A DNA stretch of 62,078 nt, counting the filler. It is 10 parts of 10 records of this genome, joined end to end, with 100 filler letters (N's around TTAATTAATTAA, not from the genome) between each part and the next. Parts side by side here need not be neighbours in the genome. Positions count along the whole stretch, not along the records: positions 56,549 to 62,078 come from SRR31147125_203478; 9 more parts are not named here. One strand, written 5' to 3'. The translations under genes were made by a program, and so were the position numbers. Each line of letters starts with the position of its first letter. Within the stretch, counting starts at the first letter, position 1. Of the stretch, positions 3,001 through 62,078 are shown piece after piece. The notes under the pieces were generated by a model, which ran no database searches, was not told where the DNA came from, and worked only from the letters and a program-made list of their open reading frames with translations.

Positions 3001-5003
3001 GGCCTCTTTGTTATTGCCGGTCTACCCGTGCAGGCATCGTTGAGCTGGGAGACGTGTGCACGAGGAAACACGTGCCTTCTCCGCCAAGACGGGAGCAACA
3101 ATGTTTGCCTCCATTTCGGACATTTGATACTCCTCCCCGTCGAGAAACTCGAAGAGAGTACTGGTAGTCTCTGTTGCCTTGACGAGAATTGTTGTATTGG
3201 TGGAACAAACTTGAAGGGCCAACTATATACACCATGTTCCATTGGTTCACGGCGACAAACCAAGCAGGCACATACCCATTTCAGAAGCAGATCCAAGTTG
3301 TCCATGATTTCGGAGCCATATCTAAACGACACGAACATGTGAACACACACACACAAGAACAACCTTACACCGCGCTTCACCCACTGATCCACCACATTTT
3401 GAAAGTCTGTGAGAGCCTACAGAACACAAAGGTCACAAAGGAATCCATACAGACAAAGGCATACATGGACAACTTTCTTGAAATCCTTGTGGAACATATT
3501 CGCCAGCATGGCACTGCTCACATATCTGGACCATGCAAACCCATGACGAGGGTACAGATCAACACACGCAGGCACGTACGGCATGAGTTCATTTCGAATA
3601 TCATCAGCAGCTCCTTCCTCTTCCCAGTTGAATCTACGATTTCGATCGCGTCGAGAACGAAGGTCCTTTTGATTGTTAGGAAGCAGAAGGGGACCCGACG
3701 CTTCCATTGAATCGTCCTTCACCCGACGCCCAGCACCCACACTCGACATGCGACTATTACGTCCCCCAACCGACGACACTCTCCCACCACTTGTGGAAGG
3801 TCGCTCCTTGCCCTGGGACGAGGTGTCAGAGTGTCCCACCTTTGACAGCAGACAAGACAGGCAAGGGGCAACCTTGACAGTGGGACGACTAGCCTTGGCC
3901 GGAACTGTGGCGGGTCTCGCGTCCTCGCCCTCATCCGCCCCTGTTTCTCGAAGGAGATCCCTCTGTCTGTCCAGAATCGCTACAATGGGATTCATGGCAG
4001 CTGGTTTCAAGTCCAAATCTTGTGGCGTTTTCGTTACTCCTCCCTTCCTTATATGAGCATACACCTCACCTTTCAACACGACACGATGGGTTCTGTATCC
4101 ATGTTTTGCCATGGTCTCCGTCAATACCTCTTCCGCTAGGTGGCGCACGTCCGGTGTCTTGTCCTGTGCACACAAATCAGTTTCTCCGGGGAAGGCTCGA
4201 CCTCAAACCCACTTGAAGACACAATAGGGTAGGTTTGATCAAAGGAATCAAGTCTCCCTCACGTAATCCCTCCGTGTGCTTGATACACCACCCTAAGATC
4301 TCCTTTCGTCCATCGGATCCTTCTTGCTTCAGGACACCCGGAATCGCCTCGATGGCCGGAACACAGGATATTGCCTCGACCCACTTGTCCACAGCTTCCA
4401 CGGCCGTCACGCGCACACGAGGATTCTTTTCCGTCATACAGACAAACATTCCTGGCATGACAACCTGCACCATTCCCCTTGTGTGAAGCCACGGTGACCG
4501 TGTCGTGATGCAACGCGCACGGGTGCGTGTTGTTCAGCAGCCGCGCCCATCGATGTGGCAAGGAGACCGAGGAGGCTCAGGGTTGTGGCAGCTATGTTCT
4601 TGTTACTGTCCCCCAGCCGTACTTGCAAACTCCGCATGAGATCCCCTGATAATCAAGGTGAATAAGGGGAGCGCGTCGTGCCTGCACGGGCAATGTTCTC
4701 ACCAACAGCAGGAGCTATTCGTTTGTTGGCACCCACAACAATCCTTTCCACCTCTTCCAGCCCACTGGCTCGGTTCTAGAACAACAAGTCACACTGGGAA
4801 GAGGACGTGATGCGAACCAACCTTCCAGTTTCCATCTCCCAGCTGGGTAAGAAGTTCTGGTGTGATCTTTGCGGCGATGTTCTCTCGTGGAAGCATATCC
4901 CCGAGGCCACCACCCGCACCCGCCCCCACACCGCCCCCACCACCAGTGGACGCAGCACCCTTGCCCTTCCCGGGCCCACCACCACCACCACCACCACCAC
5001 CAC
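1..5003 (-). CDS. XMAP215: XMAP215/ch-TOG/MOR1 microtubule polymerase (TOG/HEAT repeats); spliced, truncated at both ends
   Basis: Manually spliced exons give RLGDSNKNIA, SKNARTRVECL, LLRALNLLMLKILE|NADRT, DDRPLRTVKTILNEIVK and LESIIKKISTKETTWDGLQELYDF, matching MOR1/ch-TOG segments. Short GT-AG introns separate the exons. No stop codon before position 1. Confidence 0.92.
1220..1266 (-). other. 47-nt spliceosomal intron
   Basis: GTGCGT...TGTCAG; removal joins KALAA|SVEEIDIDVLLYDLHQ. Confidence 0.85.
1396..1440 (-). other. 45-nt spliceosomal intron
   Basis: GTAAGA...TTCCAG; removal joins LKILE|NADRT as in MOR1. Confidence 0.85.
1695..1740 (-). other. 46-nt spliceosomal intron
   Basis: GTATGC...GCTCAC...CCCAG; removal gives RFCKYTLNTL. 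Confidence 0.85.
3022..3075 (-). other. 54-nt GC-AG intron
   Basis: AAG|GCACGT...GGGTAG|ACC; removal gives VLAEK|TGNNKEAIR and eliminates an in-frame TAG. Confidence 0.7.
4976..5003 (+). repeat. (CAC)n microsatellite at the contig end
   Basis: ccaccaccac... run abutting the N spacer. Confidence 0.9.
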
Positions 5004-57521: not shown

Positions 57522-58313
57522 ATGTCAAAACAGATTGTCTACCGCACCCATTTTGAAAACCAGGTGGTCGAGGTCATCGATACCGGTGACAGGCGCTCGC
57601 TCTACTTTGGAGGGAACTCGCTGCAATCGGCGATGTACCACTCCGCTCCCCACCAGCTCGCGCTATCCTACACCCGCTTCATGATGGCACCGCTGGTACT
57701 CAATGACGATCCACAGCGCATCCTGCTGGTGGGAATCGGTGCCGGATCGATGATCCGATTCTTCCACCACCATTTCCCCTCCGCACGGATCGACGGGGTC
57801 GACAACTCATCAGCCGTTATCGATCTCGCCAGGGAATATTTCCATCTTCCCGGCAGCGACATCATCACTATCCACTGCTGCAGCGGGTTCAACTTCCTGA
57901 CCGAGCGCACGGAAGAATATGATTATGATCTGATCATGGTCGATGCATTCGATGCATTCGGCATGGCTGAAGCGATCTACAACCGTGAATTCTTCGAACT
58001 CTGCCAGCACCACCTCTCCGTCACCGGCATCGCAAGCCTGAATCTATGGAGCGGGGATCAGCCCCGCATGGAGGACATCGCCGGGGACATCGGCGCGTAC
58101 TTCGAATCGTGCCTCGAACTGCCGGTACCCAACCGCGGCAATGTGATCGTACTGGCCGGACGGGGGGACATCCTGTCACCATTCGTCGAGGCCAACCCCG
58201 AAATCCTCGACGAATTGCAGAGTCGATTCGAACTCAACTTCAGGGAGATGGTCAAGATCGGCAGAAAGGTCAATCTCGGATTCTTTGAGCGGCTGCCGCG
58301 CCTTTGGTCATAG
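57522..58313 (+). CDS. Spermidine-synthase-like SAM-dependent methyltransferase
   Basis: LQSAM, LSYTRFMM, LLVGIGAGS, DLIMVDAFD. Confidence 0.85.
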   Translation: MSKQIVYRTHFENQVVEVIDTGDRRSLYFGGNSLQSAMYHSAPHQLALSYTRFMMAPLVLNDDPQRILLVGIGAGSMIRFFHHHFPSARIDGVDNSSAVIDLAREYFHLPGSDIITIHCCSGFNFLTERTEEYDYDLIMVDAFDAFGMAEAIYNREFFELCQHHLSVTGIASLNLWSGDQPRMEDIAGDIGAYFESCLELPVPNRGNVIVLAGRGDILSPFVEANPEILDELQSRFELNFREMVKIGRKVNLGFFERLPRLWS

Positions 58314-59288
58314 CTGGTCTCCGATCGCTTTCCTGATCACCTGCACCTGATCGACGAGGTCATCGATCTCCTGCCGCCAGTAGTTGTAGGAGCCAAAGTC
58401 TTCATTGACCTTTGTGAATCCGTCATCGACGAACTGGTGCGCGCACCAGCTGATATAGTGGATGAAGCGCATCGCCCGGAGCGGTTCGATCAGCCGAAGG
58501 GTCGAACGATCAAAGGTGTTGAATGTCTCGTAGCCCTCCAGCAGAAGCGCCAGCTCTACCCGGGAGTCGTCGATGCTGCCGGGCAGTAGCATCCACAGAT
58601 CCTGAATCGGCGGACCCACCACCATGTCGTCGAAGTCTATGATATAAAAGGACTCGTCCGGACGATAGATCAGGTTACCGCTGTGGCAGTCACCGTGCAG
58701 CCGGCACATCCTGACCGAACGAAAAGACGGTTCGATGATCTCGAGCAGTTCTGCGCTCACCGATTGGAACTCTGCCGCAAGGTCCTGCGGGATCAACGCA
58801 GTGGCGACAAGCGCGGCGACCTGGGCGCGGGTCGTGTCGTGCGGGTGTAACCGGTTCCGGTTCGGTGCATCCCCGCCTTCACCGACCGTGTGCAGCCTTC
58901 CGAGCAATCGGCCCAGCTCGAGCCATTGCTCGTCGGAGTATTCATCGACCAGTCGACCACCGAGACGCGGATAGACCGCGAAACTGACGTTCTCGCACGA
59001 GGCGAGACGGCTGCCGTCCTGCAGTTCAAACGGTGCGATCACCGGCAACTCAGCTGCGGCACATTCGGATACGAACTGGAGCTCATCTTCGAGGGCCGCC
59101 CGTCTCCACCTCGTGGGCCGGTAGAACTTGGCGACCAGAAACTCGCCATCTTCATCCTGCAGCTCGTAGACACGGTTGATGTAGCTGGCATGGGGACGGC
59201 ATACATTGAGCAGTCTCCTGCCGGTCGCCTGCTCGACCGAGTTCAGGATAGTATCCGGATTCAGTGCTCCAAAGGGGGAATCTGTCAT
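58308..59288 (-). CDS. srkA: Ser/Thr kinase SrkA/RdoA (YihE)
   Basis: SYINRVY, VAKFYRP.RW, RLHGDCHSGN, DFDD, IQDLWMLL, IEPLRAMR. Confidence 0.92.
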   Translation of the reverse strand: MTDSPFGALNPDTILNSVEQATGRRLLNVCRPHASYINRVYELQDEDGEFLVAKFYRPTRWRRAALEDELQFVSECAAAELPVIAPFELQDGSRLASCENVSFAVYPRLGGRLVDEYSDEQWLELGRLLGRLHTVGEGGDAPNRNRLHPHDTTRAQVAALVATALIPQDLAAEFQSVSAELLEIIEPSFRSVRMCRLHGDCHSGNLIYRPDESFYIIDFDDMVVGPPIQDLWMLLPGSIDDSRVELALLLEGYETFNTFDRSTLRLIEPLRAMRFIHYISWCAHQFVDDGFTKVNEDFGSYNYWRQEIDDLVDQVQVIRKAIGDQL

Positions 59289-59380
59289 GTATCAAAACCA
59301 ATAGTTTTCATGAGTGCGGTCAAAATGGTATGGTGTGCACCCTACTCACTCGATGACAAAGAAACCACCAGAATTTTACG

Positions 59381-60142
59381 ATGAACCACCCCGTCGACGA
59401 CCTTCCCCGGCATTGCACCGCTTCAGGCTACTGCCGCACGTGTTGCACCACGCATGCGCTGCCGACCGGCACTGCGCGCCAGAGGGCCCTGGACATCATG
59501 GAACTGTTCGAGCACACAGAATCGATAGCGCTCAACGCCGGCTGCTCTGAGCTTTCGGACCACTCGACCGCGCCGCTTTTCGGCGAGGCGCGCGGCAAGA
59601 TGTTCGGCGTGCTCGAGTGTGTGGATCGTGACGGCCTGATCCACTGGCTTTATTCGTTTTCCGGGCAGTACAGCAGCCGCTGGCTCCTGCCCGGGTGGGC
59701 GCCACCACTCTTCGACGTGGAGCAGTTTCAGCAGATCAACGATCCGGAAGAGCGGCACATCAAGGATATCACCCGGCAGATTGAAGCAGGCATGGAGGCG
59801 GCGCGTGAGAAAGAACTGAAAACCGAGCGTACCCGGCGCTGCCGGCAGCTGATGAAAGATATCCATGCGCTCTACTCGCTTACCAACTTCCGTGGTGAAA
59901 CAGCCACGCTGGACGAAGTGGTGGGGGCTGAACGCAACCACCCCACCGGAATGGGCGACTGTTGTGCACCCAAACTGCTCAACAACGCGGCTCGGCGGGG
60001 ATTGAAGCCGGTTTCAATGGTGGAGTTCTATTTCGGTCGGGAGAATCGCTCACGAACCAGAAAGCACGCTCAGTTCTATCCACCCTGCTCCGACAAATGC
60101 AGACCGCTGCTCGGCTTCCTGCTGTGCGGTGCGCAAGAGTAA
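59381..60142 (+). CDS. Stand-alone TrcP-like cytidine-deaminase domain protein
   Basis: GKMFGVL, SFSGQ, WAPPLFD, GMGDCCAPKLL, MVEFYFG and FYPPCSDKCRPLLG match the N-terminal domain of long RluA/TrcP proteins. Confidence 0.7.
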   Translation: MNHPVDDLPRHCTASGYCRTCCTTHALPTGTARQRALDIMELFEHTESIALNAGCSELSDHSTAPLFGEARGKMFGVLECVDRDGLIHWLYSFSGQYSSRWLLPGWAPPLFDVEQFQQINDPEERHIKDITRQIEAGMEAAREKELKTERTRRCRQLMKDIHALYSLTNFRGETATLDEVVGAERNHPTGMGDCCAPKLLNNAARRGLKPVSMVEFYFGRENRSRTRKHAQFYPPCSDKCRPLLGFLLCGAQE

Positions 60143-60145
60143 TCA

Positions 60146-60778
60146 ATGAATCCTGCGATCATCTACCAGGACGATTCGCTCGTGATCGTCGACAAGCCCG
60201 GCGGGCTGCTGGCGGTTCCCGGACGCGGCCCGGACAAACAGGACTGCGTCGTCTCCCGGGTGCGGGCACAGTTCCCCCGGATGATGGACCAGCCGGCGGT
60301 GCACCGTCTTGACATGCAGACCTCCGGGATCATGGTGCTGGCAATGCACCCCGCCGCCCACAAATCGCTCAGCAGACAGTTCCAGGGTCGTCAGGTAGTC
60401 AAGAGGTACGAAGCGGTGGTGGACGGCATCATCGAGAAACCGTCCGGCGTGATACGGCTCGCCTTTCGCCTCGACCCGGAAAACCGGCCCCACCAGATCT
60501 ACGACCCGGTGAACGGTAAAGACTCGGTAACCCTGTGGAAACGGATGTCCATAGATGGACAGACCACCCGGGTCGAATTTACCCCGCTGACCGGACGCAC
60601 CCATCAGCTGCGCGTGCACAGTGCCCACCACCTCGGTCTCGCCGCCCCGATCATCGGGGACGCGCTGTACGGAACCGGCAGCGACGGCGACATGATGTAC
60701 CTGCATGCAGTCTATCTCTCGTTCAACCACCCCGACGATGACCGAATCGTGGAATTTTCCAGCCGCCCGCCGTTCTGA
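60146..60778 (+). CDS. rluA: RluA-family pseudouridine synthase
   Basis: VDKPGGLLAVPG, VHRLDMQTSG, KRYEA, TGRTHQLRVH, IIGDALYG, LHA. Confidence 0.95.
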   Translation: MNPAIIYQDDSLVIVDKPGGLLAVPGRGPDKQDCVVSRVRAQFPRMMDQPAVHRLDMQTSGIMVLAMHPAAHKSLSRQFQGRQVVKRYEAVVDGIIEKPSGVIRLAFRLDPENRPHQIYDPVNGKDSVTLWKRMSIDGQTTRVEFTPLTGRTHQLRVHSAHHLGLAAPIIGDALYGTGSDGDMMYLHAVYLSFNHPDDDRIVEFSSRPPF

Positions 60779-60889
60779 GCACATTTGTATTTACGCACCC
60801 GCTGCCAGCGCTTACCGTATGTAGTAAACGCACCGGTTCCGAGGCAGCCGGGTTGAGCACGTATCATCTGATCACGAGGACATGCAGCC

Positions 60890-62053
60890 ATGCAGCAGGT
60901 AGTTGAAAGTGAAGCGATCCCGATCAAGCTCTGGCTTAACGACATGGAGGAAGGCGCGATGCAGCAGGCCCGCAATCTCGCCAACCTGCCATTCGCGTTT
61001 CACCATGTCGCGATCATGCCCGATGCCCATTTCGGGTTCGGGATGCCGATAGGCGGTATTCTCGCCACTGAAGACGTCGTGATCCCCAACGCGGTCGGGG
61101 TGGATATCGGCTGCGGCATGTGCAGCGTGAAGACCTCGCTCGAGTATATCGACAGGGACGCTCTGAAACAAATCATGCAGTCCGTTCGCTCGCGCGTCCC
61201 GCTGGGCTTCAAGCACCACAAGAAGAAACAGCCCCACGACGCGATGCCGGAAGAGGAGATCGCCGATCTGCCGATCGTCAAATCGGAGTACGACAACGCA
61301 CGGACCCAGGTCGGGACCCTCGGCGGCGGAAATCACTTCATCGAGATCCAGCGGGGGACGGACGGACGCATCTGGTTCATGATCCACTCCGGCAGCCGCA
61401 ACCTCGGCTTTCGGGTCGCCAACCACTACAACAAACTGGCCGCCACCCTGAACAAGAAGTGGAAGAGCCCGCTTCCCGCATCCTGGCAGTTGGCCTACCT
61501 GCCGATGGACGACACCGCCGGGCGAACCTATTTTCGGGAAATGAGTTATTGCGTGAAGTTCGCGGAGGCGAACCGGGCGCTGATGCAGCGGCAGGTCGAG
61601 CACTGTTTTCGAGAGCACCTGCCCGATATCCACTTCGATGCTCCAATCAACATCGCCCACAACTACGCAGACCGGGAGCTTCACTTCGGCAGACAGGTCT
61701 ATGTCCACCGCAAGGGTGCAACCAGGGCGGAAACCGGAGACACCGGCATCATTCCGGGATCCCAGGGAAGTGCGAGTTTCATCGTGAGCGGCAAGTCGAA
61801 TCCCGAGAGCTTCAACTCGTGCTCCCATGGCGCGGGCAGGAAGATGGGCAGGAAACAGGCCCAGAGACAGCTCGATCTCAACGGGGAGCGGCGGAGGCTC
61901 GAGAAAAATAACATCCTGCACAGCCTGCGGGGGAAGAAAGATCTCGATGAAGCCCCGGGGGCATACAAGAACATCGAGCGCGTTATCGACTATCAGCAGG
62001 ACCTGATCGAGGTCCTCGACGTGCTGCAGCCGCTTGCGGTGATAAAAGGGTAA
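60890..62053 (+). CDS. rtcB: RtcB 3'-phosphate/5'-OH RNA ligase
   Basis: MPDAH, VGVDIGCG, GGGNHF, HSGSR, HNY, HRKGA, SHGAGR, DEAPGAYK. Confidence 0.96.
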   Translation: MQQVVESEAIPIKLWLNDMEEGAMQQARNLANLPFAFHHVAIMPDAHFGFGMPIGGILATEDVVIPNAVGVDIGCGMCSVKTSLEYIDRDALKQIMQSVRSRVPLGFKHHKKKQPHDAMPEEEIADLPIVKSEYDNARTQVGTLGGGNHFIEIQRGTDGRIWFMIHSGSRNLGFRVANHYNKLAATLNKKWKSPLPASWQLAYLPMDDTAGRTYFREMSYCVKFAEANRALMQRQVEHCFREHLPDIHFDAPINIAHNYADRELHFGRQVYVHRKGATRAETGDTGIIPGSQGSASFIVSGKSNPESFNSCSHGAGRKMGRKQAQRQLDLNGERRRLEKNNILHSLRGKKDLDEAPGAYKNIERVIDYQQDLIEVLDVLQPLAVIKG

Positions 62054-62078
62054 GACGGCAGAACAAGCTGTGGGACGA

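Follow-up and report, generated by a model that had tools for sequence, protein, structure and literature searches.

A putative two-gene, compact counterpart of the TrcP tRNA editing enzyme: a deaminase-like gene followed by a separate RluA gene

Two adjacent genes on the plus strand of a 62,078-nucleotide (nt) stretch of DNA (the window; all coordinates count along its whole length), in the part that comes from record SRR31147125_203478, probably make up a true TrcP-type tRNA editing system (C to U to pseudouridine) in compact, two-gene form. We give this reading a probability of about 0.68. The first gene, open reading frame (ORF) A, encodes a 253-amino-acid (aa) protein resembling the N-terminal domain of TrcP, and the second, ORF B, encodes a minimal RluA-type pseudouridine synthase (Table 1). 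TrcP (VCA0104) is the tRNA-Tyr C32-to-pseudouridine editor of Vibrio cholerae (Kimura et al. 2022, PMC9553926). An earlier note, made from the sequence alone, had read the locus as a TrcP-like deaminase beside a minimal RluA encoded separately, the helical region being much reduced. The analyses presented here support that reading: ORF A matched TrcP orthologs in tblastn searches, its four predicted catalytic positions aligned with theirs, and the two-gene arrangement was confirmed to be real.

Two separate genes in the window and in related loci

The pair was recovered as first described, with a 253-aa frame that carries the motifs CRTCCTTH (residues 18-25), GKMFGVL (72-78), GDCCAPKLL (192-200) and FYPPCSDKC (232-240) and ends 3 nt before the RluA gene. 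Because the two genes share a frame, the earlier note had cautioned that a single nonsense change or a read error could have created the split, and it had asked whether relatives are split as well. We classified 80 loci fetched from species genomes according to their deaminase/RluA arrangement. In 46 of them a separate deaminase-like gene was directly followed by an RluA gene, which bears out the claim of two separate proteins, and the split extended to all 16 members of the window's own clade. Another 21 loci were fused; 19 of these, all from Pseudanabaena-type cyanobacteria, encoded long forms (539-600 aa), and the other two were compact forms cut by a contig end. The remaining loci had no RluA within the locus (8), an RluA 3.6 kb downstream (1), a position at a contig end (3) or a partial gene (1). 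A start codon could be assigned to the RluA gene in all but one of the 46 split loci (45), and it lay in frame +1 in 20, in frame +2 in 25 and in the same frame in none. The junction gaps of these 45 loci ranged from -29 to +83 nt, the commonest values being -4 nt (14 loci) and -11 nt (9 loci). In the 46th (L049), the aligned frames of the deaminase and the RluA differed likewise. A single in-frame case was seen at the level of high-scoring segment pairs, a partial RluA match (residues 139-210) in L003, where the match covering the start was in frame +2. Since the RluA frame differs in related split loci, a single nonsense change cannot explain the pattern, and the shared frame with its 3-nt gap is particular to the locus in the window. 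In three loci from metagenome-assembled genomes (MAGs; L003, L005 and L013), the RluA matches came in pieces across different frames; these breaks are probably assembly errors, or else decay.

Sequencing runs and a cultured isolate also bore on the junction. A 16,674-nt contig of run X1 was identical over 59300-60900, TAA included, although X1 may be the source sample and hence not independent. A relative about 92% identical (64 differences in 806 nt) spanned the junction in runs X2-X4, which belong to two other studies. There, CAA (Q252) was replaced by TAA at 60134-36 and the TAA by TTG at 60140-42, so that the stop lay two codons earlier and the split was retained. The 40 differences listed, out of 74 for this relative, fell in 34 codons, 20 of which were changed synonymously, and the codons of C195 and C240 were altered only synonymously; such changes look as expected under purifying selection on ORF A. 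In the cultured isolate Desulfobaculum bizertense SY-1 the pair is annotated as 'hypothetical protein' and 'RluA family pseudouridine synthase', 6 nt apart. This pair (L139, 3001-4467) resides on the complete 72.5-kb plasmid NZ_CP090010.1. The annotated start of its 'hypothetical protein' (locus position 3127) lies 126 nt inside the aligned region and would cut off the N-terminal CxxC..H knuckle, so it was probably called too late.

If a fused gene had recently been broken, be it by a nonsense mutation, by pseudogenisation or by an error of sequencing or assembly at TAA 60140-60142, this would account for the shared frame and the 3-nt spacing, and compact fused forms of 445-500 aa with about 50% identity do occur in Kiritimatiellota/Verrucomicrobiota. 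We give this explanation next to no credence. The RluA lies in another frame in 45/45 split loci with a callable start, the closest relative is split too with its stop at a different position, and the X1 contig, possibly from the source sample, carries the same stop. The linker of about 25 aa present in the fused forms is absent here, and both ORFs are full length with every conserved residue kept. The suspected nonsense change or read error is therefore refuted by the other-frame RluA genes of relatives, the shifted stop of the ~92% identical relative and the annotated pair of the isolate.

Relationship of ORF A to TrcP and its predicted catalytic core

Searches of Pfam and NCBIfam with ORF A gave no model at E<=0.1, PADLOC gave no hit for ORF A or ORF B, and the protein Atlas matches were confined to unnamed 'hypothetical protein' clusters of Thermodesulfobacteriota. 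A word-indexed search limited to proteins of near length (139-443 aa) nevertheless found 937 relatives at E<=1e-3, and an exhaustive search found 1185 representative clusters, which places ORF A far from a chance ORF. The best 120 of the 937 relatives were about 250 aa long and all without an RluA part; the named ones were 'hypothetical proteins' of Desulfofustis, Desulfocapsaceae, Desulfopila and Desulfotalea. Among the best 150 of the 1185 clusters, 104 were deaminase-only (median 263 aa) and 46 were fused to RluA, a ranking that favours relatives of the query and in which some short members may be fragments.

The connection to TrcP came from a tblastn search of a plasmid collection that includes several Vibrionaceae second chromosomes. 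Eighteen records matched, by way of 'RluA family pseudouridine synthase' genes of Vibrio, Pseudoalteromonas and Photobacterium (E 1e-15 to 9e-11; the Vibrio TrcP orthologs, 1e-15 to 3e-14) and also of Bacteroidales. When ORF A was aligned with the 559-aa protein of Vibrio sp. HDW18 and with cyanobacterial and Bacteroidota long forms, 38 columns were invariant. Residues C194, E215, C236 and C240 of ORF A shared columns with C282, E303, C324 and C328 of the HDW18 protein, a TrcP ortholog. In V. cholerae TrcP, C282, C324 and C328 are the Zn ligands and E303 is the catalytic Glu, and all are required for C-to-U editing (PMC9553926). The four residues were all kept in 333 of the 335 family members with both ends alignable. 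Judged by these alignments, ORF A is a homologue of the TrcP N-terminal deaminase domain.

The full structure model of ORF A had a predicted local distance difference test (pLDDT) score of 94.5. The closest solved fold to ORF A was a small-molecule deaminase, blasticidin S deaminase (PDB 2z3h and 2z3g), with a modest score; the TrcP paper names the same enzyme as the closest structure (PMC9553926). The model thus supports, without proving, a cytidine-deaminase-like globular fold. A Foldseek search with the full model gave no match. The canonical deaminase H/C-A-E and P-C-x-x-C motifs were not detectable in the sequence of ORF A, in line with its lack of a Pfam hit, and the family profile matched PDB sequences only through the RluA part of fused members. 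These profile results agree with the TrcP paper, which describes the domain as lacking sequence similarity to known deaminases (PMC9553926).

A short helical hairpin and an additional Cys/His set

The much reduced helical region claimed for ORF A was upheld. In the model it consists of a 57-aa hairpin (residues 109-165, with helices at 113-135 and 140-162) corresponding to the base of the long helical domain of TrcP; aligned with the Vibrio ortholog, it falls short by 91 columns. All hairpin-type structural matches to ORF A covered exactly this segment. R150 was invariant in the alignments of compact and long forms, and the returning helix (helix 2) was basic, with 8 K/R versus 4 D/E. The helical domain of about 135 aa with a distal basic patch, by which TrcP is recognised, was not found in ORF A, the hairpin being too short to carry such a patch. 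In TrcP, the distal basic patch is essential for tRNA binding and editing (PMC9553926).

The extra N-terminal CxxC..H motif reported by the earlier note proved to be part of a larger set. In the model, C18-x2-C21-x3-H25 forms the turn of an N-terminal beta-hairpin (strands 12-18 and 23-28), and its residues co-vary across the family with a fourth, C249, in the C-terminal LLCG. In the alignment of compact forms, C18, C21 and C249 were invariant and H25 nearly so, while the whole set was missing from the long TrcP-type forms. Of 335 proteins, 219 had both the N-terminal trio and C249 and 101 had neither, with 15 discordant. The complete tetrad occurred in 161/185 proteins of up to 400 aa, in 52/77 of 401-520 aa and in 6/73 longer ones. 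Relatives share states, so that these counts do not represent independent events. The co-variation suggests that the tetrad is probably a second, structural zinc site. This candidate site would anchor the knuckle at the N-terminus to the C-terminal end and may offset the loss of the helical domain.

ORF B, an RluA-type synthase

ORF B scored 94.9 bits against PF00849 (cut-off 26.8) and aligned with Escherichia coli RluA (PDB 2i82) at E 7.3e-36. Its best specific model, NF007543, gave 138.3 bits, below the cut-off of 286, so that it falls short of the RluA equivalog, and TIGR00005 gave 171.5 bits against a cut-off of 192.7. H53, R54, L55 and D56 as well as GRTHQLR were invariant in an alignment of 49 RluA sequences. 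ORF B was 54-56% identical to the pseudouridine synthase part of the compact fused forms and 44-47% identical to that of the long fused forms. In Desulfofustis glycolicus, which has a split pair, the partner was the only RluA-type protein among 5 PF00849 genes. Pseudanabaena genomes with the fused form also had no separate RluA. We considered the idea that splitting frees the RluA for housekeeping and dropped it as a distinguishing feature, fused-form genomes being likewise without a separate RluA.

Distribution of split, fused and solitary forms

Split pairs occurred in Thermodesulfobacteriota, Gemmatimonadota, Latescibacterota, Lentisphaerota and Krumholzibacteriota, and the split arrangement is conserved in many sediment bacteria. 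We built a quick maximum-likelihood tree of 76 deaminase domains, which carries a long-branch warning and has no known root, so that the direction of change is not set. The window fell in a starred clade of Desulfobulbales, all of them split, and the compact fused forms made up one starred clade of their own. The fused/split state changed at least five times on this tree.

The link between the RluA and the deaminase gene is strong but not absolute. In three genomes other genes separated the deaminase gene from an orthologous RluA (62-64% identical), which lay at a distance of 3.6, about 6 and about 8 kb downstream. Two Desulfocapsa sp. MAGs (L029, 3968-4675, and L030) carried an intact 235-aa deaminase gene with catalytic and knuckle motifs and without an adjacent RluA. 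The genome behind L029 (G005) gave no RluA orthologue, its best match being 36% identical, in a MAG that may be incomplete. Four Nannocystaceae loci were also without an adjacent RluA.

Some loci showed further arrangements. In L026, the genes between the deaminase gene and the RluA were an unknown ORF of 211 aa and one for a HEAT/cNMP-binding protein. One Nannocystaceae genome (G006) had both a 496-aa fused form without the Cys/His knuckle (L101, 637-2127) and a compact stand-alone copy that lacked a neighbouring RluA (L036). A single-member cluster, P0177 (480 aa), joined an N-terminal GDSL lipase/acylhydrolase domain to a deaminase-like domain 46% identical to ORF A; this could be a true alternative fusion or two genes merged by the gene caller.

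Proposed mechanism and alternative explanations

On our reading as a compact two-gene TrcP system, three predicted ligands, C194, C236 and C240, would hold the catalytic zinc of ORF A, and E215 would serve as the proton shuttle. By analogy with V. cholerae, ORF A would convert a cytidine of a tRNA anticodon loop to U, C32 of tRNA-Tyr being the likeliest site. Isomerisation of this U to pseudouridine would fall to ORF B, which would either bind ORF A non-covalently or act after it. A second zinc, with a structural role, is probably bound by the N-terminal Cys2-His knuckle, which C249 closes. In relatives, the stop codon of the deaminase gene and the start codon of the RluA gene overlap. This arrangement suggests that the two proteins are made in a coupled, equimolar way, as would be fitting for a non-covalent complex. 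The lineages without an adjacent RluA suggest that the deaminase can also work alone. The tRNA-Tyr(GTA) of D. glycolicus encodes C32, which is compatible with the V. cholerae target.

Several points weigh against this reading. When the two halves of V. cholerae TrcP were separated and mixed in trans, no pseudouridine formed (PMC9553926). A C32 in tRNA-Tyr does not discriminate between explanations, and the adjacent RluA could simply be the housekeeping enzyme of D. glycolicus. On the structural side, Foldseek searches of the PDB with the full model and with the 166-253 fragment returned no hit at E<=0.001, a wide VIA search with the full model returned only matches to the helical hairpin, and hhalign of the family profile against 19 canonical PF00383 dCMP/cytidine deaminase domains gave a probability of 0.08%.

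Ordinary RluA makes pseudouridine 32 in tRNA and pseudouridine 746 in 23S RNA. The two genes might accordingly be functionally independent neighbours, ORF A being a lone C-to-U editor or another deaminase and ORF B a housekeeping RluA, with neither complex nor channeling between them. The genomes with a distant RluA (3.6-8 kb away in three cases), the intact solitary genes of L029 and L030, with G005 lacking an RluA orthologue, and the four Nannocystaceae loci are what this explanation would lead one to find, and the TrcP N-terminal domain alone converts C32 to U (PMC9553926). The D. glycolicus partner, as the sole RluA-type protein of its genome, fits as well, but being the only RluA fails to separate the two models because fused-form genomes also lack a separate one. 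We nevertheless consider independence rather unlikely: in several phyla the two genes have stayed adjacent, their stop and start codons overlapping, fusion to the same type of RluA recurs along with the repeated fused/split changes on the tree, and the MAGs with solitary genes may be incomplete. A quite improbable alternative is that ORF A is no RNA cytidine deaminase at all and acts as a non-catalytic specificity subunit of RluA, or as a deaminase of, for example, a nucleoside antibiotic, as blasticidin S deaminase does. Its closest solved fold is indeed a small-molecule deaminase, it shows no sequence similarity to canonical nucleic-acid deaminases and the tRNA-tethering part of TrcP is missing. 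The near-universal retention of the catalytic residues (333/335) argues against a non-catalytic role, however, an RNA substrate is favoured by the persistent association, as a fusion or an operon, with an RNA pseudouridine synthase, and the sequence homology is to TrcP and not to blasticidin S deaminase. We put forward more tentatively, as a possibility, that the stand-alone proteins of about 250 aa are autonomous compact RNA cytidine deaminases in which the zinc knuckle replaces the tethering helices, working in trans with a pseudouridine synthase or, in some lineages, without one.

Genomic context

The features of the locus are listed in Table 1. An RtcB RNA ligase gene directly followed the pair in the window and in L001, L003-L009, L011-L015 and L020, the closest Desulfobulbales relatives (62-76% identity), and was absent from this position in more distant carriers of the pair. 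This neighbourhood could be plain synteny or a small cluster for RNA repair and RNA modification. The spermidine-synthase-like methyltransferase and APH-family kinase-like genes, which lie upstream, were syntenic with the pair across Desulfobulbales (L002-L035), more widely than RtcB. The spacer between RluA and RtcB (60778-60847) is variable: in the relative from run X4, 68 of its letters were skipped and 111 others stood in their place. A scan of 59000-61200 for promoters and terminators gave counts at the level of shuffled sequence, Rfam gave no match over 58000-62078 and one tRNA-Met was the sole tRNA within the window.

Table 1. Coordinates of the deaminase/RluA pair, its predicted functional elements and the neighbouring genes
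Feature	Position	Strand	Description
ORF A	59381..60142	+	253 aa; stand-alone, compact, putative Zn-dependent RNA cytidine deaminase resembling the TrcP N-terminal domain
C18-x2-C21-x3-H25 (CRTCCTTH)	59432..59455	+	Turn of the N-terminal beta-hairpin in the model
Short helical hairpin	59705..59875	+	Residues 109-165 in the model
Predicted catalytic core	59960..60100	+	C194 59960-62, E215 60023-25, C236 60086-88, C240 60098-100; from alignment with the TrcP ortholog
C249 codon (LLCG)	60125..60127	+	Fourth member of the co-varying Cys/His set
Gene junction TAA-TCA-ATG	60140..60148	+	Stop TAA 60140-60142, ATG at 60146; 3-nt gap, same frame
ORF B	60146..60778	+	210 aa; minimal RluA-type pseudouridine synthase; PF00849 7.4e-27; catalytic HRLD with D56 at 60311-60313
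RtcB RNA ligase gene	60890..62053	+	Directly downstream of the pair; PF01139 1.1e-111
APH-family kinase-like gene	58308..59288	-	Divergent, upstream of ORF A; PF01636 8.7e-33
Spermidine-synthase-like methyltransferase gene	57522-58313		Upstream of the pair

Significance

TrcP is the only characterised enzyme of its kind, a single protein with a tethered synthase half and essential long helices, and its homologues are said to have both halves without exception (PMC9553926), whereas here the halves are separate and the helices mostly gone. The split form is apparently at least as diverse as the fused one, given the 104 deaminase-only clusters counted above in a ranking that favours query relatives. 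It bears on the tethering model of TrcP by raising the question of whether tethering is really required, and it draws attention to the role of the extra zinc knuckle and to C-to-U editing without pseudouridylation in bacteria. If the stand-alone proteins are indeed autonomous deaminases, covalent tethering or channeling would be unneeded for bacterial C-to-U tRNA editing, some bacteria would stop at U32, and these proteins would be among the smallest natural RNA C-to-U editors. A deaminase scaffold of about 250 aa might be of use in RNA base-editing, and cultured carriers exist: Desulfofustis glycolicus DSM 9705, Desulfopila aestuarii DSM 18488, Desulfoprunum benzoelyticum DSM 28570 and Desulfobaculum bizertense SY-1.

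Within the literature searched, bacterial TrcP came up only in PMC9553926, in PMC12588516 and in the review PMC11802342. The accessible text of these sources does not describe split or stand-alone forms, which the PDF/.xls supplements of PMC9553926 might list; its text/xlsx supplements held no 'Desulfo', 'Gemmatimon' or 'hypothetical protein' entries. A modification map of V. cholerae calls trcP 'so far reported as Vibrio-specific' (PMC12588516).

Comparison with known systems

TrcP offers the closest comparison. Both systems have a homologous deaminase domain whose catalytic residues align through the co-linear Vibrio ortholog, a helical insertion at the same place in the deaminase fold and an RluA-type synthase partner with HRLD, the deaminase being encoded first and the synthase second. 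In contrast to the single polypeptide of TrcP, whose C-terminal domain needs covalent linkage for activity (PMC9553926), the window encodes two proteins, the helical domain of about 135 aa is replaced by the 57-aa hairpin, and the C18/C21/H25/C249 set, absent in the long forms, is present. The compact fused forms of Kiritimatiellota/Verrucomicrobiota (445-500 aa, annotated 'RluA family pseudouridine synthase') are about 50% identical to ORF A over 95% of its length. They share the short hairpin and, in their size range (401-520 aa), often the complete tetrad, but they are single polypeptides in which the linker joins the end of the deaminase to the start of the RluA. As for blasticidin S deaminase and the cytidine deaminase fold, neither sequence nor profile comparison detected a resemblance of ORF A to canonical deaminase domains; ORF A takes its Glu from another element, as reported for TrcP (PMC9553926), and adds the helical insertion and the N-terminal knuckle. 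ORF B, finally, aligns with E. coli RluA over 200 residues and keeps the catalytic Asp motif, but differs from it in scoring below the NCBI equivalog cut-off and in being genetically coupled to a deaminase gene.

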